Position numbers and translations under genes: made by a program. From NCBI GenBank assembly GCA_035528755.1, contig DATKXZ010000023.1:1-48637 (forward strand): 48,637 bases of DNA. The letters run 5' to 3'. Shown one piece after another: positions 15,200 through 48,348 of this stretch. This DNA is from Desulfobacteria bacterium. GTDB taxonomy: Archaea; Halobacteriota; Syntropharchaeia; Alkanophagales; Methanospirareceae. The stretch's first letter is position 1; every line of letters starts with the position of its first letter. The notes below the pieces were generated by a model. It made no database searches. It was not told where the DNA came from and was given only the letters and a program-made list of their open reading frames with translations.

Positions 15200-16483
15200 T
15201 TGACAAAACGTTCTTTTATAAAATCAGAAAGGCTGATGCCGAACGTAATACGAGACCCGCTGCATGGATATATAGAACTGGACGAACTTGCCAGCGCGAT
15301 CATAGATACCGCGGAGATGCAGCGGCTGAGGCGGATCAGACAGCTCGGCTTCTCTTATCTGGTCTATCCGGGCGCGAATCATACGCGGTTCGAGCATTCG
15401 CTCGGCACGTACCATCTGATGAATGTCTTGCTTAACCGGCTCGAAGTAGCGAAAGAGGAAGAGCAGGAGCTGCTCGTTGCGGCATTGATCCATGACGTGG
15501 GCCATGGCCCGTATTCGCACGTGACCGAGCCGCTCATAAAGCGGCTGACGGGAAAAGGCCATGAAGATCTCGAATCCGTGCTCTTTGCAGAGGAGAACGT
15601 GCGGGAAAAAGATGCCGAAACCGCAGCAGCACCGACCATAGCAGAAGTCGTGGAAGCGCATCATTTGGATATACGGAAGATCCTAGGTTACATAAAAGGC
15701 GAGAAAACAGAAGGTGTGCGAAAGCGGGATCTTTCACGGATATTAAACGGCGAAATCGACGTGGACAAGATGGACTATTTGGTTAGAGATTCGTATTATA
15801 CCGGCGTGGCTTACGGTGTCGTTGACAATATACGGCTCATCCAAGGGCTGAATTTCTTCGATGACGAGCTCGTTCTCACGGAGAAAGGAGTGCTGCCGGC
15901 AGAATATCTGCTCTTCTCCCGGTTCCTGATGCACCCTACCGTTTATAATCACCATACCGGTCGGATAGCGCAATTGATGCTTTTGAATGCACTTGACGCG
16001 TTCATCGAATCCTCAGCAGAATCGAAAGACTATGCAGCCGCATTACGAACAATGGACGATTCCGAGATAAACATCGCATTAAGGAATGCCGGGGGCTATC
16101 CAAACGAGATGATAACGCGGCTAAACGAGCGGCGATTGTTCAAACGGGCGATATACACAAACGTAAGCGAGCTGGATGCGAGTGCAGCAGAAGGTTTACG
16201 TGACGCACGACGGATGCAAGAAGTAGTAGCGGACATAAGCAAGCGCGCGGGCGTTGATAAGAAATATGTCTTACTGGATTATCAAAAGCCAAAAGGCAGG
16301 GAGTTAGAAGAAGGTGCGGCAAGGGTGGTTATCGGGAACGAGTTCAGGAGTCTGCGCGATGTGTCATCGCTCGTTGCCATGCTCAGTCGCGAATTCGAGC
16401 GGAATTATAAAATCGGGGTTTATACGCCGGAAGAACATAGAGCAAAAGTGAAAAAGGCTGCCGAAGAGATCTTGTGGAAGTGA
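15200..16483 (+). CDS. HD-domain metal-dependent phosphohydrolase (dNTP triphosphohydrolase/SAMHD1-like).
   Basis: Contains IRDPLHGYIEL, RLRRIRQLG, RFEHSLGT, HDVGHGPYSH and DVDKMDYLVRDSYYTG. The track start is TTG at 15200; the ATG at 15236 is more likely. Confidence 0.85.
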   Translation: MTKRSFIKSERLMPNVIRDPLHGYIELDELASAIIDTAEMQRLRRIRQLGFSYLVYPGANHTRFEHSLGTYHLMNVLLNRLEVAKEEEQELLVAALIHDVGHGPYSHVTEPLIKRLTGKGHEDLESVLFAEENVREKDAETAAAPTIAEVVEAHHLDIRKILGYIKGEKTEGVRKRDLSRILNGEIDVDKMDYLVRDSYYTGVAYGVVDNIRLIQGLNFFDDELVLTEKGVLPAEYLLFSRFLMHPTVYNHHTGRIAQLMLLNALDAFIESSAESKDYAAALRTMDDSEINIALRNAGGYPNEMITRLNERRLFKRAIYTNVSELDASAAEGLRDARRMQEVVADISKRAGVDKKYVLLDYQKPKGRELEEGAARVVIGNEFRSLRDVSSLVAMLSREFERNYKIGVYTPEEHRAKVKKAAEEILWK

Positions 16484-16540
16484 AAAAGTTATGTCCAGAT
16501 ATAAAAATCACAAAGTGTTGCAATACATGAGGATGTAGAA

Positions 16541-17428
16541 ATGTATAAAAGTTTCAAAATAATAGATGATTTTGTTAAAGAGATATACGGTTTTAATTTA
16601 ATTGGAGAACCAATTAATCATGATATTTCAAAAATAAAGGAGTTAAGAAAAGCTCATGAGACTATAAAAGAGATAACACAAAGGAAAAGAAAACCCTATT
16701 CAAATGAATTTATCAAATACGTGTATCCTCTATTAGAAATTTCATTGCAGTGGTCTGAGTTAAAGAAAGAAGGGAGTATAACTGAATATTTTTTAGAAAA
16801 ATGCAAGCAAAGAGTTAGAACTCCAAACAACTTTTATGGCACCATATTCGAGATAGATATGGCCTCTAGGTGTATTTTATCAAATTGGGATATTAAATTT
16901 TCAGAAGATTGCACTAAAGAAGGGAGGCAAATAGATTTTGTATTTTATAAACGTGATAATCATTGTAAAGTGATTGGTGTAGAATGTCATTCAAAAAGAA
17001 ATACACGTAATCTCACAATCCAAAAGATTAACAGAGCTATTAATGATAAGGCAAAGAAGTTTGAACAGGAATTTATAAATAAATTAGGCTTTAATCTAGA
17101 TGAGAAGTTGTTAATTATTGATATAACGACAGCTAACTATTCTTCGCCTAAGATTTTGGAAGATTTAGATAAAACCGAAATGAGTGGTAAATTAGACGCA
17201 GTAATTTTCACTTGGAGAGAAGATAAAATAGATGGCGAAAATCATAGTTTAGCAGTAAAGTATAAAGTCATTGGTGATTGTGATAAGAAATATTTTTCAA
17301 CAACATATGCCGCAGAACTTCGTAAAGGTCCCGTTTTCTTTGTGAGAAAATATATCGAGCCTGAACCTTGTGTTATCAAAGTAGAACCTGAAGAAAGAAC
17401 TCATAGGATTGGAAAGCAGAAGAGATAA
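16541..17428 (+). CDS. AT-rich orphan protein with a weak restriction-endonuclease-like (PD-(D/E)xK-like) motif pattern.
   Basis: 295-aa ORF, visibly AT-richer than its neighbours. FEIDM...QIDFVFY...VIGVECHSK is only suggestive of a nuclease core. Confidence 0.5.
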   Translation: MYKSFKIIDDFVKEIYGFNLIGEPINHDISKIKELRKAHETIKEITQRKRKPYSNEFIKYVYPLLEISLQWSELKKEGSITEYFLEKCKQRVRTPNNFYGTIFEIDMASRCILSNWDIKFSEDCTKEGRQIDFVFYKRDNHCKVIGVECHSKRNTRNLTIQKINRAINDKAKKFEQEFINKLGFNLDEKLLIIDITTANYSSPKILEDLDKTEMSGKLDAVIFTWREDKIDGENHSLAVKYKVIGDCDKKYFSTTYAAELRKGPVFFVRKYIEPEPCVIKVEPEERTHRIGKQKR

Positions 17429-17451
17429 AAAAAGTGATGTGATTTGCTCAA

Positions 17452-17576
17452 TCACGCCTCTTCCGCTTCCGCCTTCGCCAGAAGCTCCGCAAGCGACTTC
17501 TTGCCGTATTCCTTGACGGTTACATTGATCTGCGAGATTTCCGTGGAGATTTCGTTACCCCGCACGGATTTCCGGC
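17452..17576 (-). repeat. Detached duplicate of the 3' end of rps6e (last 41 codons plus stop): copy A of a 125-bp direct repeat.
   Basis: Matches 18416..18540 at 122 of 125 positions (3 substitutions). Would encode RKSVRGNEISTEISQINVTVKEYGKKSLAELLAKAEAEEA*. Confidence 0.95.
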
Positions 17577-17659
17577 TGCCCCAGAGGGCGGAAAAGTGGT
17601 CTACCATATTGTAGCCACAAAGGTAGTTATTTATATGCCTCCATACTATAACTCCATAT

Positions 17660-17899
17660 ATGGCAGGTACACAAAGTAAATACATTACGCTCTCCATCAA
17701 AGTTCGCAGAGAAATGAAGGAGAAACTCGAGCACGCGGGGATTAAGCCGAGCGAGGTGATGCGTACGGCGTTAAGTGATGCGCTCGAAGAGGCGGATAAG
17801 GAAGCATTATTAAACGAATGGAAGATTGTGCGCGGGATCTTCAAGAAAATTCCAGAAGAGCGTATAACGAGGGGCATCCGGGAAGATAGGGAGCGATAA
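17660..17899 (+). CDS. vapB: VapB-type antitoxin (small DNA-binding protein).
   Basis: 79 aa. Reads ITLSIKVRREMKEKLEHAGIKPSEVMRTAL. The stop is 1 nt before the PIN-gene start. Confidence 0.7.
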   Translation: MAGTQSKYITLSIKVRREMKEKLEHAGIKPSEVMRTALSDALEEADKEALLNEWKIVRGIFKKIPEERITRGIREDRER

Positions 17900-17900
17900 C

Positions 17901-18293
17901 ATGCTGTTTGATGCAAGTTCAATTTATCTTCTTGCTAAAGAAGGGCGTATCGAGATTCTTATAGGAAAGAGCACACTCTCACTCGCAATCTACGAACTCG
18001 GGAATGCGATCTTGAAGGATATTCGAATATTCAAGAGTATCTCACCTGAAGAAGGCATGAAAGCACTGAGTTTTTTAAGAAAAATCCTGGAGAAAATGGA
18101 GGTTCATGCGATAGGCAGGAACGAGGTTCAGATACTGAAGTTCGCGGGAGAGCAGGGTCTCACTTTTTACGATGCAGCCTATTTACAAATGGCGTTGGAG
18201 CTTGAAGCGCCACTCGTGACAGAGGATGAAAAGCTCAAACGCGTTACATCCGCCCTCGCCCTAACCGAGGTTTACTCTGCTCATGAGTTGTGA
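17901..18293 (+). CDS. vapC: PIN-domain ribonuclease toxin VapC.
   Basis: 130 aa. Reads MLFDASSIY (Asp4)...LTFYDAAYLQMALELEAPLVTEDEKL (conserved acidic residues). Confidence 0.8.
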   Translation: MLFDASSIYLLAKEGRIEILIGKSTLSLAIYELGNAILKDIRIFKSISPEEGMKALSFLRKILEKMEVHAIGRNEVQILKFAGEQGLTFYDAAYLQMALELEAPLVTEDEKLKRVTSALALTEVYSAHEL

Positions 18294-18415
18294 AACCACA
18301 CATTTTCGACATGGAGCCAGCGCTGCCGAGAAATAGGGATGTGAAGGGGTCAAAAATCGATGATGGTTTTAGGGTTCGCAATTCCCACGAGACCGTTCAA
18401 AGCTCACTCAACCTA

Positions 18416-18808
18416 TCACGCCTCTTCTGCTTCCGCCTTCACCAGAAGCTCCGCAAGCGACTTCTTGCCGTATTCCTTGACGGTTACATTGATCTGCGAG
18501 ATTTCCGTGGAGATTTCGTTACCACGCACGGATTTCCGGCGCCGTTTACCTTGCTCTTTTAGCTGGTACCCTGGGGGATCAGTGATTAATATCCGCTTCC
18601 GCGCCATACCCCCAACGTCTTTACGCATCGGCATACCCTGCTTGTCCGAGCCGCCGGTTATCTCGAGCGCATAGCCGCCCAGACCAAGAATATCCGCATC
18701 CACAACGTTGCCGACCCGTTTCCCGATGAACAGCGCATTCGCTTCTGCATCCTTGCCTTCCACTTTGTACGCCTTACCTGTTTTTGAATCGCTTATCACA
18801 ATCTGCAT
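18416..18808 (-). CDS. rps6e: 30S ribosomal protein S6e.
   Basis: Reads MQIVISDSKTGKAYKVE...GGYALEITGGSDKQGMPMRKDV...RKSVRGNEIS. The 3' 125 nt (18416-18540) form copy B of the direct repeat. Confidence 0.9.
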   Translation of the reverse strand: MQIVISDSKTGKAYKVEGKDAEANALFIGKRVGNVVDADILGLGGYALEITGGSDKQGMPMRKDVGGMARKRILITDPPGYQLKEQGKRRRKSVRGNEISTEISQINVTVKEYGKKSLAELLVKAEAEEA

Positions 18809-18841
18809 TTTGTTTTTGTGCTCCCTTCTCCTTCTATCTTA

Positions 18842-18850
18842 ATTTATAAA
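18842..18850 (-). promoter_or_regulatory. TATA box for rps6e.
   Basis: The minus strand reads GGTTTATAAATT, 34-42 nt upstream of the ATG at 18808. Confidence 0.45.
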
Positions 18851-19141
18851 CCTTCTTCTAATAAGTCTCTTTTTTCGTGCTCTTTATATTTTTTCATGGT
18901 TCACCGAGGACTCGCGGTTAAGAGCACTTTGAAGATTGATAGAGAAATATTCCCCTCATCAAACCTTTATTTGCATTAATGAACTCGTATAGAGAGTCTT
19001 CCGCAATCTCCCTTCTCAAGCACTCTATCCACCCCTCCATCTTGCCGCCTTTCACCGCTCTAATAAAGAATATATGAAAATGAGTTGTTACGTAATCTGG
19101 TTTTTTAAAACTTGGCGATGTAAGATGTATAGGGTTATAAA

Positions 19142-19642
19142 ATGTCAGAAGTAGAGACTTTGGAGGATTTATATAATTGGATAGAGGACGAATACGTCTC
19201 TGATTTTTTAGGTGCTGTTATGAATATACTGCATGACAGACCTAACGTGTGGGTTACAATAAGAGATATAGCTGCGATTTTAAACAAACAATTTGTTGAG
19301 ACCTACGCCAAGCAGATGACTTTGCTACTGTTTCCAATACGCTTCTTACCTGAAATAGAAAGTAAAGAAGACGAGGATGATGCATTATGGAGATTTAAAT
19401 ATAACCCTGATACAGAGAAGGAATTTAAGAAGACAGGTTTTGAGAGGTTATCAGATCGACAGATCTCCAAATGGGATATAATTGAGAAAGCTTACGCTAA
19501 AACTATAGATGATAACATAGGGTATTTCAAAGGCGAAAAACAGGAAAAGAACCTAAAAAGTGGGGATGACCAGTTAGAGGCTGCAAGGAGCCAACTAAGA
19601 AAAGCACAACTGGATGAACGGGAGGTAGGGAGGGATCTTTAA
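19142..19642 (+). CDS. AT-rich orphan protein (acidic, with a coiled-coil C-terminus).
   Basis: 166-aa ORF with no motif I recognise. Confidence 0.45.
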   Translation: MSEVETLEDLYNWIEDEYVSDFLGAVMNILHDRPNVWVTIRDIAAILNKQFVETYAKQMTLLLFPIRFLPEIESKEDEDDALWRFKYNPDTEKEFKKTGFERLSDRQISKWDIIEKAYAKTIDDNIGYFKGEKQEKNLKSGDDQLEAARSQLRKAQLDEREVGRDL

Positions 19643-19668
19643 AAAGTCTTGAGTTTAAAGCAGCTTGT

Positions 19669-20379
19669 CTACAAATCCTCATGGAGAGCAGCCGCAACAG
19701 ATGGAATGATAACTGAAGTTAGTGACTCGATATAACTCCTAGGATCGAATATTTTTTGAGAGGAACACCTAAAGGCTATTCTACTCTCGCGAAGAATATC
19801 GATAAACTCACCCTCGCTCCCTCTTAATCTCTCACCCACTACCGATATTTGATTATAGAGTATTTTTGCACTCCCGGCGCTCGTAAATTCCTCACCAATT
19901 ATTCTACTGTTGGCAAGTTGCAGGAATTTCTTAATGACTATCCGATAATCTGTGGGGATTTTATCCACTTTGACGAATACCTCAAAAGCCTCCTTAAACC
20001 TCTTAAAATATCTCTCCTCTAACTCCTCCAAGATATTCTCTTTTGTCCTATATACACTGTCCCATAGCTCTCGATCTTTAGATTGTTTGGTGCGGACACC
20101 GCAGCCCCACGGTTCTTCTGGGATGTATAACGAGGGATGTCTCGATTTTAATTCTTCATGATACTTGTTCTGAATTTTAACCATTGTATTTTTCACCTTA
20201 TCTAATCCCTCTGGAGATGATGTGCTAAAATAAACGGTGAGAATCTCAAGGGGAGTCGTAAAGGAGTCGCTAAAAAGACCGATGGAATAGCAAGGATGAA
20301 ATCTAAGATATAAAATCGCCAGATAAACAGCCATTGCTTCTTCATCACTCCCCATGAGATCGTCCAGCGAGATATTCAT
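19669..20379 (-). CDS. AT-rich orphan protein.
   Basis: 236-aa ORF, convergent with 19142..19642, with no motif I recognise. Confidence 0.45.
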   Translation of the reverse strand: MNISLDDLMGSDEEAMAVYLAILYLRFHPCYSIGLFSDSFTTPLEILTVYFSTSSPEGLDKVKNTMVKIQNKYHEELKSRHPSLYIPEEPWGCGVRTKQSKDRELWDSVYRTKENILEELEERYFKRFKEAFEVFVKVDKIPTDYRIVIKKFLQLANSRIIGEEFTSAGSAKILYNQISVVGERLRGSEGEFIDILRESRIAFRCSSQKIFDPRSYIESLTSVIIPSVAAALHEDL

Positions 20380-20655
20380 TTCTCATTCTCACCTCCTTCG
20401 TGTTACAATCTCCTTACTTACGTCCTCTTTCTTCTAAATGCAATTTTTTGGTAGTTATAGCCCATAGGTAGACGGAAATTTTCATACCCGTTTCTTCTCA
20501 TTTCTTCTATTATTTCATCGTCGCTCATATTTGGCCATGTCTTTCTTAAATCTTCCAGCAACGGTGCTTTAGGTTTATAGCCATAGTTTCGCGTCACTTT
20601 CTTCGCCCCTTCATGCAGTTTGATACTAATTTAAAATTGAATCTAAGCAAAAACG

Positions 20656-20916
20656 CTATCGCAGCAGCTTCTTTTTCTGCTCATTAAATTCCTCATCTGT
20701 GATAACTCCTTGATCATGTAACTCTGCTAATTTTTTAAGTTCGTCCGCTATTTCCGTCTGCTTCGGTTCTTCCTTTGGCTTCTCCTTCGCTGCTCTAATT
20801 ATAAACCTAATAGCAAGCAGGATCGCTGTTATTACAACAATAATCGCGATAGCAATTGGTACTAGTAGAGTTACTAGAATTCCTGTTTCTGTTGGTCCAA
20901 TCAAATCCACAATCAC
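20656..20916 (-). CDS. Small membrane protein with a C-terminal SHOCT domain.
   Basis: N-terminal TM segment (ILVTLLVPIAIAIIVVITAILLAI) plus ELKKLAELHDQGVITDEEFNEQKKKLL. Confidence 0.7.
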   Translation of the reverse strand: MIVDLIGPTETGILVTLLVPIAIAIIVVITAILLAIRFIIRAAKEKPKEEPKQTEIADELKKLAELHDQGVITDEEFNEQKKKLLR

Positions 20917-21000
20917 CCCCTGTGTTTTACACCATACCTTTCTATCTCACGGACCCATATAAAACTTTCGATGTATATATCCAAAACGTCGACATGCCAC

Positions 21001-34397: not shown

Positions 34398-34471
34398 TGG
34401 GGTCGGTGCGATTCGAACGCACGATCGGCGAGTCTGGAGCCCGCTGCCCTTCCGGACTAGGCCACGACCCC
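34398..34471 (-). tRNA. tRNA-Trp (anticodon CCA), intron-less.
   Basis: Manual fold:
- acceptor GGGGTCG/CGACCCC
- D arm GCCT-AGTCCGGAA-GGGC
- anticodon stem GCGGG/CTCGC, loop CT-CCA-GA
- T arm GTGCG-TTCGAAT-CGCAC
- discriminator A, with a T6 run downstream
The length is 74 nt. Confidence 0.88.
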
Positions 34472-46992: not shown

Positions 46993-48348
46993 TCATCGAG
47001 AGGCCCAATCATGGAGGTTTTTCTGGTTGTTCATATTTTGTTTACAATAAGGGCAGAATTTCCACGATGCCGCAATCGAGGAATTACAGTTCGGGCATTT
47101 TTTGACCCCTATATCTGATCCACAGTGAGGGCATACATTCCAGTTCTGATCGAGATTGCTACCGCAGGAAGGGCATTTGTAAACGCTGCCATTATTATTC
47201 GTTATGCCGACTCGTGCTAAATACTCTTTGATTCGCTCATCTATCTCCTCTTTCTGTGGTGGCTTCTCGAGTACCTGTTTAATGCTCAAGGCAGGATATG
47301 CCTTCACATACGCCGCTTTTAGCCGGTTTACCGTTGCTCTCATGTACGCACTATCATACGGAAGCTTATGTCCCAGCATCTCTTCTACGTAATCCGGAGG
47401 GGCACCTTGATCCCTGAGGATAGTGGAGAACGAGGCACGTAAGGCATGTATTCCCGCAGTGTTTATTGTTCTCCCTTTTTCTTCCTCACTTATCAGCCCT
47501 GCCTTCAGTGCTACTGCTTGCATAGCTCTATTAATGCCACTTTCATAAGCCCTCACACGCTCTTTCCTGCGGCGGTTGGATTCTGATATGAAGAGAGGAG
47601 AATCTTTCTTTATGTCTTCGGGATCCAGATATCGCGACCCCTTTTTCCTGAGCTTGATATAACAGCTTAATGAATCTACCGCGTCTTCCCCTATGAAGGT
47701 ATAATATTCTATCCCCTCTTTCTCTCTCATGAGATGTAACGTAAGTGGAACTTCACCCTTTTCTAAGCCCTCAGCCACATCTCCATAGTTCAGCGAGATA
47801 AGTTCTTTCATCCCCAGCCCGCCCTGGAATGCGCACAGGATGATCGTTCTGTCCCGTAATCTCTCACAGACCGCTATCATCCGCTTCACATCTTGTGCCG
47901 ATAGGAACTTTCTGAAGTTTTCTTTTAGTTTCCGTGGTGTTGGCAAGTGCAAATTGCCAACGGGAATCTCGTTCTCTTTATAAAATACCCGTACGTCCTC
48001 AATGATCCGCCCCGCGGATCGTGGCGCCAGTCCCCGTTCTCCTTTTCTCCTCCCTCCTTTTTCGGGTATTACATAGTCAGTCCGGAGCCAGTCATAGAAC
48101 TCTTTTAACTTCAGCTCTGTCTCCTTCACGCTTACTCGTTTCGCTTCTTCTATCAGTTCGCCAGGGCTTCGCTCTCTCCAATTGCAGTATAACTTTATCA
48201 GTCGTGCGCGGTTTTCCCTGATTTTCCTGCCTCTTCCGACGATGGTTACCCGTACCTCTTTGATGTCGCTAAAAGCATAATTGTTTCTTTCGAGTTCTGC
48301 TTCTACCCGGTCCACTTCAATCGCTTTCTCAGTCACGTTGCTCATCAC
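46993..48348 (-). CDS. Tyrosine recombinase/integrase with an N-terminal SAM-like domain and a C-terminal double zinc ribbon.
   Basis: Catalytic-domain motifs: [14 protein letters not shown] (Arg-region context), HALRASFST (HxxR), [14 protein letters not shown] (His...Tyr). The C-terminus reads CPSCGS..x..CPHCGS...CPNCNS..x..CPYCKQ. GTG at 48348 or ATG at 48345. Confidence 0.85.

Follow-up and report, generated by a model that had tools for sequence, protein, structure and literature searches.

The window analyzed here (the whole contig DATKXZ010000023.1, 48,637 nt) harbors an islet without an integrase, bracketed by repeats, at the 3′ end of the ribosomal protein gene rps6e, a housekeeping gene, in an uncultured archaeon related to ANME-1 (anaerobic methanotrophic archaea, group 1). 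The islet is a 964-bp unit that contains a predicted vapBC toxin-antitoxin (TA) pair and is marked off by direct repeats of the rps6e end. It is probably a resident, excisable TA cassette carrying a replacement rps6e 3′ end, which would be lost, and possibly regained, through recombination between the repeats. New in the present analysis are the empty site found on the contig of a close relative, L120, the old association of vapBC with rps6e, and an age of the repeats which, judged from their substitutions, is younger than the split from L120. The following features define the site.

17451..17576, minus strand: copy A, the detached 3′ end of rps6e (codons ~89–130 and the stop), found by the repeat searches and abutting orf295
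18415..18540, minus strand: copy B, with which the functional rps6e ends (repeat searches, open reading frame [ORF] list, Pfam)
18416..18808, minus strand: rps6e, intact, ribosomal protein S6e of 130 amino acids (Pfam PF01092 Ribosomal_S6e, 1.8e-41)
16541..17428, plus strand: orf295, a low-GC (low guanine-cytosine) orphan with the HD-domain gene on one side and copy A on the other; the empty site of L120 has it too

The direct repeats were recovered by repeat search, MAFFT, and blastn (E = 5e-59) as 126 nt with 98% identity, and the three mismatches between the copies lie at 17472, 17485, and 17567. An 81-nt stretch forms the perfectly identical core. The identity begins 1 nt beyond the stop codon of rps6e and stops at about codon 89. 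The first-pass annotation, made from the sequence of the window, had described the repeats as 125 bp long with three differences, which holds with one nucleotide added at the left of each copy. It had also taken copy B to be the true end of rps6e, in agreement with the Ribosomal_S6e match of the 130-amino acid ORF; orthologs of the gene were found in 35 related loci. At copy A, the JGI annotation placed a 77-amino acid ORF with a PF01092 match. A third copy, including a degenerate one near the HD/orf295 junction that would be a sign of tandem elements, was not found in the window by blastn, and the repeat search of the window found no inverted repeat pairing both ends of the cassette.

The contig L120 was reached through P0045, a homolog of orf295 with 86% identity. 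It aligned to the window at 16448–17580 (90.8% identity) and at 18415–18895 (93.9% identity), and both alignments share one 129-nt stretch of L120 (1026–1154). The order on L120 is the end of the HD-domain gene, orf295, 55 nt, and an intact rps6e with a single copy of the 126-nt repeat, of which the left flank is that of copy A (the orf295 side) and the right flank that of copy B (the rps6e body). From this empty site it follows that the 964-bp unit is an indel with the repeats as its exact boundaries; the original 3′ end of rps6e is copy A, now displaced, and the cassette supplies the replacement. A relative with a single copy had been named beforehand as the test of the locus, and copy A had been read as a detached fragment; L120 provides the former and, by its left flank, upholds the latter. 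The opposite outcome, a duplication with no vapBC between the copies, was seen in none of the relatives. As orf295 is present at the empty site too, it lies outside the cassette. The sequences fit a gain in the window lineage and a loss in L120 alike, and the direction of the event belongs to the part of the explanation that we infer.

The repeat-cassette structure is not an assembly artifact, as independent assemblies are identical and the copy-specific single-nucleotide polymorphisms (SNPs) are tied to the correct flanks. Contigs from JGI 3300031539 (50.8 kb) and ENA ERZ27256834 (48.6 kb, k141) were 100% identical over both copies. In short Logan/JGI contigs from other samples, the private SNPs of each copy were linked to its own flank, those of copy A at 17472 and 17485 being joined to orf295 and that at 17567 to vapB. 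The short contigs traverse copy B completely, and their breaks are confined to the 81-nt identical core. The repeat, for which a collapse on reassembly had been considered, was thus retained in independent assemblies that cross both copies.

Between the two copies lies an interval of 839 nt with a TATA box, vapB, vapC, and a 122-nt spacer, in which an 83-nt control region precedes vapB. The earlier description of this interval, a TATA-like box and a vapB-vapC pair on the strand opposite to rps6e, was confirmed, with the spacer to be added.

17577..17659, plus strand: vapBC control region (alignments of 5–8 lineages)
17630–17637, plus strand: TATA box TTTATATG, conserved, ~27 nt upstream of the vapB ATG
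17660..17899, plus strand: vapB, predicted antitoxin of 79 amino acids (sub-threshold family matches, co-conserved with vapC)
17901..18293, plus strand: vapC, predicted toxin, a PIN-domain protein of 130 amino acids (Pfam PIN, homologs, PDB profile matches)
18294..18414, no strand: cassette spacer from the vapC stop to the rps6e stop, reported as 122 nt
18351–18359, minus strand: CGATTTTTG in the spacer, a conserved motif and candidate rps6e terminator
17427..17433, minus strand: T7 run, candidate original rps6e terminator, 18–24 nt downstream of the copy A stop and overlapping the orf295 stop

The pair at 17660–18293 is a predicted type II vapBC toxin-antitoxin. VapC matched Pfam PIN at 2e-4 with 22.4 bits, just under the gathering cut-off of 23.6 bits, and its homologs bear a precomputed PF01850 match. 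Among 16 homologs, D4, E32, and D91 are invariant and D109 is nearly so, i.e., all four acidic residues of PIN domains are present. The VapC family profile matched the PIN proteins PAE2754 (1e-19) and PAE0151 (1e-13) in the PDB (structures 1v8p and 2fe1), and plasmid-borne relatives with 35% identity are annotated as VapC. VapB is probably a ribbon-helix-helix protein; it matched the NCBIfam model TA_anti_VapB_Sulfo at 4.8e-8, below the cut-off of the model, and a CopG-like PHROG at 0.0035. Its matches to designed PPR (pentatricopeptide repeat) proteins in the PDB were rejected as low-complexity artifacts with no stretch above threshold. The vapB stop codon lies 1 nt ahead of the vapC start, an arrangement of one operon with the antitoxin immediately upstream, and vapB was co-conserved with vapC in all the loci and lineages examined. 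In the alignments of 5–8 lineages, the control region contains the invariant GGTAGTyATTTATATGC, which includes the TATA box. An inverted repeat, CTACC...GGTAG, abuts the promoter and is a candidate VapB operator.

The AAAAATCG motif of the spacer is kept in the window, L049, L061, L116, L118, and L119, while the remaining spacer has diverged. Read on the strand of rps6e, the motif is CGATTTTT, which makes it a plausible oligo-T terminator of the archaeal type that the cassette would supply to this gene. The T7 run behind copy A is found downstream of the intact rps6e in L120 as well and is a candidate for the original terminator.

The closest rps6e loci in species-representative genomes belonged to uncultured archaea labeled Methanophagales/ANME-1, Methanosarcinales archaeon, Methanospirareceae, and similar. 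Their conserved order, DnaJ, aIF5B, and rps6e facing an HD-domain gene followed by ThiDN, THUMP, and GT2 genes, represents the ancestral synteny. The stop codons of rps6e and the HD-domain gene are 35–44 nt apart in L010, L011, L016, and L019, and the gap of the window, 1.9 kb, is made up of orf295, copy A, vapB, and vapC. The context of VapC homologs with at least 69% identity was read for P0002, P0004, P0005, P0007, P0008, P0010, P0011, and the loci L060–L062. All the homologs at 69–80% identity with a readable context lie between rps6e and the HD-domain gene in the same orientation, and those at 48% identity or less lie in unrelated contexts elsewhere. The nearest known relative of the cassette is L118, with vapBC DNA 82.5% identical to that of the window and a synonymous divergence (dS) of ~0.95 for vapB.

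Some of the distant vapBC members (L074, L076, L078, L079, and L091; VapC 37–44%) were also found with flanking direct repeats of 45–253 nt and 82–93% identity. The possibility that these are duplications of neighboring gene ends was rejected, since the repeats look like dispersed repeats or remnants of insertion sequences (TnpB-like): those of L078 are TnpB-like zinc-ribbon remnants and those of L079 are hairpin repeats. The TA cassettes of distant members often lie between dispersed repeats.

Most of the homologs at 69–80% identity belong to a genus-level sister clade, here called clade Y (L049, L051–L058, L059, L060, L061, L116, L117, and L119), with a VapC 70–76% identical to that of the window; aIF5B is ~81% identical between the two and 92–95% identical within the clade. 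In clade Y, an orthologous rps6e 3′ fragment lies upstream of vapB. The fragment is 88% identical to its own rps6e over 95 nt in L049 and 90–91% identical over 91 nt in L051–L058, and in L049 its end lies 16 nt from the HD stop, the position expected of the original gene end. The fragments of the clade share the derived changes GCGGcG and CAGcTC and retain an ancestral TAC where rps6e of L049 and L051 now has TTC; the fragment is therefore old there and unconverted since the radiation of the clade. An additional upstream piece of rps6e is set off in these fragments by a deletion flanked by microhomology. The fragment is decaying, with an internal deletion in L061, loss of the 3′ part in L119, and complete loss in L059. 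By these comparisons, the association of vapBC with rps6e is old and shared by the window lineage and its sister clade. A recent one-off capture is not supported, since the sister clade has the same vapBC in the same position, beside a decaying orthologous fragment.

The repeats of the window are of a different age. The dS between the window and L120 is 0.13–0.25. Polarized with L120, L118, and other relatives, two of the changes fall to copy A and one to copy B. A neutral copy A as old as the L120 split would be expected to carry ~8–13 changes, against the 2 observed (Poisson P ~3e-4 to 0.01). With copy A so far below the neutral expectation, the repeats are estimated to be younger than the split from L120. 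Young repeats in turn point to one of two recent events: re-entry of the cassette from a very close relative through a crossover within rps6e, or refreshing of the relic by gene conversion. On the vapB side of the 126-nt block, the alignments showed no older, decayed rps6e homology, which speaks mildly for a true junction and against the end point of a conversion tract. A mosaic rps6e with its 3′ end from a donor was also considered for the window and rejected; the identity of the 3′ part falls less towards clade Y than towards other clades, and the effect amounts to ~8 nt and is not significant.

In the explanation that we favor, the 964-bp unit is a discrete insertion/deletion cassette at the rps6e 3′ end, made up of one 126-nt repeat, the 122-nt spacer, vapC, vapB, and the promoter region. 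It lies at about codon 89, inside the reading frame of rps6e, and brings along the last 41 codons, the stop, and probably a terminator; by carrying a replacement 3′ end, it leaves the essential gene intact. The original 3′ end, copy A, is moved 964 bp off, still abutting its original downstream neighbor. One crossover between the copies would remove the cassette precisely, and insertion would result from the reverse event, in which a circular copy recombines with the rps6e of a close relative. Such crossovers could be the work of host homologous recombination, as pop-out and Campbell-type re-insertion among close relatives. Host homologous recombination rather than site-specific recombination is most likely, given that no recombinase is encoded, that the repeat is long and lineage-specific, and that there are no close copies on mobile replicons. 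In the sister clade, the displaced fragment has decayed and the cassette has become fixed, and in the window lineage the young repeats were re-created by re-insertion or homogenized by gene conversion in recent times.

Several observations weigh against this explanation. The inner junction lies at codon 89 in the window and at about codon 78, with an internal deletion, in clade Y, a difference that fits one event followed by remodeling and two separate events alike. The distance between the VapC proteins of the window and clade Y is ~1.8 times that within the clade, against 3–3.8 times for host genes; this low relative divergence hints that the cassette moved laterally between lineages already diverged, where a homology of 126 nt at ~75% identity would be a poor substrate for homologous recombination. 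At the mismatch sites 17472, 17485, and 17567, L120 is A-like, B-like, and B-like, respectively, a pattern that one crossover in the stretch from 17472 to 17485, whether excising or inserting, would explain, as would plain mutation. No circular or free form was seen, circular junction reads not having been searched, and a non-Xer tyrosine recombinase encoded 28 kb away could act in trans.

It is possible, though in our judgment unlikely, that the cassette is an old and immobile resident, descended from a single ancestral insertion, that has never re-inserted, with a recent gene conversion of the relic by rps6e as the sole cause of the near-identical repeats of the window and with repeat-mediated loss in L120. 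The presence of vapBC in the window, in L118 at the divergence given above, and in clade Y would fit vertical residence, a deletion between direct repeats would give exactly the structure of L120, and the decay of the fragment in clade Y is as expected of a relic. However, conversion should have left older decayed rps6e homology beyond the 126-nt block towards vapB, where none was seen, and clade Y has had no conversion since its radiation. In addition, vapBC is absent from L034 and L008, the closest relatives, which would require several losses.

A bolder form of the favored explanation, which we regard as rather doubtful, is that vapBC is a self-sufficient, integrase-free mobile cassette, which would use the rps6e 3′ end as a portable homology arm, leave as a 964-bp circle, and re-enter related genomes by a RadA-mediated single crossover of the host, with rps6e restored each time. 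If this were true, the life cycle of an integrase-free cassette would be visible in these genomes, active where repeats are young and relatives have empty sites and immobilized in the sister clade.

The first-pass annotation had favored a site-specific integrative element. In this model, the unit would be such an element or a remnant like the cis-mobilizable elements (CIMEs), the 126 nt would be the attachment sites attL and attR, the attP of a tyrosine integrase would mimic the rps6e 3′ end, and the integrase would have been lost or would act in trans. We consider it improbable. Direct repeats flank the unit, the empty site of L120 is exact and has one copy, and the 3′ end is replaced, all of which this model would explain, as it would the occurrence of vapBC at the same site in two diverged clades with unexpectedly low relative divergence. 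Archaeal elements that integrate into protein-coding genes are documented (PMC8371274), so that the target class is not new. The window also encodes one candidate enzyme.

46993–48348, minus strand: tyrosine recombinase of 451 amino acids with C-terminal double zinc ribbons (PF00589, 1.5e-13)

This protein, the sole tyrosine recombinase in the window, is not an equivalog of XerA (69 bits against a cut-off of 220 bits). It could be part of another integrated element, one that extends past the end of the window.

On the other side, no integrase or recombinase domain was found in the cassette or within ~10 kb of it, in the window or in the loci of relatives examined, and none of these lineages has a fragment of an integrase within or next to the cassette; the first-pass annotation had already noted that no integrase remains. 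The self-blastn of 32 related species-representative loci, which would reveal a recurrent att site, detected no rps6e duplication and no similarly bracketed cargo, nor was a cognate integrase-bearing element present at the same att site in these representatives. Inserts between rps6e and the HD-domain gene in the related representatives, searched for integrases and vapBC, contained only ordinary genes without repeats, e.g., a 725-amino acid secreted-type protein, a 333-amino acid protein with an N-terminal cysteine motif, and a USP-like gene. No relative of the cassette was found in IMG/VR viral contigs or phages and none above 37% identity in plasmids, and the close copies, metagenomes included, are all at the rps6e site. 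The length of the repeat and its lineage-specific features, those of the rps6e tail of the host itself (KAEAEEA), also speak against the model, as does the inner junction, which differs between the clades. Of the integrative-element reading, the geometry with its replacement 3′ end and the empty site are supported, and the integrase-type element and a recent one-off capture are not.

Other kinds of elements do not agree with the unit. A transposon or casposon is not indicated, as the unit lacks terminal inverted repeats, its duplication measures 126 nt, and Pfam, NCBIfam, PADLOC, and PHROGs revealed no transposase in the cassette. The ends of the unit are an rps6e fragment and rps6e itself instead of the halves of an SSV-type split integrase, and no other ORF with a family match was found at the cassette ends. 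Finally, a simple local duplication unrelated to the arrival of vapBC, or an assembly chimera, is largely refuted and very improbable even though short-read unitigs break within the repeat, as the L120 indel is bounded exactly by the repeats and holds the whole cassette, several assemblies from different samples (two crossing both copies, with flank-linked SNPs) have the same structure, and no relative has the duplication without vapBC.

The unit resembles integrative elements that target the 3′ end of genes in its bracketing direct repeats, its replacement 3′ end, and the one-copy empty site. It differs from them in having no integrase, in its size of 964 bp with a TA pair alone, and in a host-specific repeat of 126 nt in place of a short conserved core; no form that is free or bears an attP was found among the sequences searched. 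CIMEs are islets flanked by att sites and devoid of recombination genes, known beside ICESt1 and ICESt3 at the 3′ end of fda in Streptococcus thermophilus. Like them, the unit is small, flanked by repeats, without an integrase, located at the 3′ end of a housekeeping gene, and excisable if a recombinase acts on it. However, no cognate integrase-bearing element was found in relatives, the host is an archaeon, and the recombination may be homologous. With archaeal chromosomal type II vapBC pairs, e.g., those of the Pyrobaculum PIN toxins PAE2754 and PAE0151, the pair shares the antitoxin-toxin order, the 1-nt gap, and the PIN acidic residues, but it occupies a fixed place behind rps6e in two clades and is bracketed by a duplication of the end of the neighboring gene. 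The topology, the exact indel boundaries, and a sufficient repeat length (126 nt with the 81-nt core) are those of pop-out or Campbell-type single crossovers. Unlike in such cases, a segment of an essential ribosomal protein gene, carried with a selfish TA pair, acts as the homology arm, and across a divergence of genus level the arrangement has either persisted or arisen again.

TA pairs are well known for their mobility. To our knowledge, the movement of naked TA cassettes without a recombinase of their own is poorly documented, especially in archaea. The present locus offers a natural series of three states, namely empty, occupied with young repeats, and occupied with an old and decaying repeat, and the series shows exchange of a TA cassette at the end of an essential gene through recombination in a gene-derived repeat. 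The locus stands out for its minimal size, its TA-only cargo, and its repeat derived from a ribosomal protein gene; it serves as a clean and testable example and changes no concept.

The surroundings of rps6e are variable in related archaea. The interval between rps6e and the HD-domain gene ranges from 35 nt to 4.4 kb and carries genes in L008, L013, L015, L018, L027, L030, L031, and L034, including low-GC orphans downstream of rps6e in L008 (6385–8420); it appears as a general hotspot of gene-content change. The orphan orf295 (GC ~30%), like the upstream orphans, had no informative match in Pfam, NCBIfam, PADLOC, and PHROGs. Its 74 homologs (42–99% identity) are scattered over Bacteria and Archaea, mostly on short contigs, with hosts that include Saganbacteria, Zixibacteria, Dehalococcoidia, and Methanobacterium, and the Methanophagales version is a fusion with DUF2341. 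It looks like a selfish or defense-type gene that has spread widely by transfer. The sole RNA gene in the Rfam scan of the window, tRNA-Trp (CCA) at 34398–34471 on the minus strand, has no adjoining repeat or integrase.

An identical VapC, P0001, is recorded in NCBI from a metagenome-assembled genome (MAG) labeled "Desulfobacteria bacterium," on a contig with archaeal rps6e, aIF5B, and ANME-1-like synteny; the public record probably contains a binning or taxonomy error here. The G37ANME1 MAG has two rps6e loci on different contigs and in different contexts (L023 on PQXB01000002.1 and L039 on PQXB01000001.1), which could be paralogs, an element-borne copy, or a binning problem. On the other side of rps6e, the window carries at 18809–21000 a low-GC block of 2.2 kb between rps6e and aIF5B (orf166, orf236, orf59, and an 84-amino acid SHOCT-like ORF). 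This block is missing in most relatives, with a gap of 160 nt, and in L120, with a gap of 433 nt; it is common to L034 and, in part, L012. As the upstream block is variable too, both sides of rps6e are flexible in ANME-1-related genomes.

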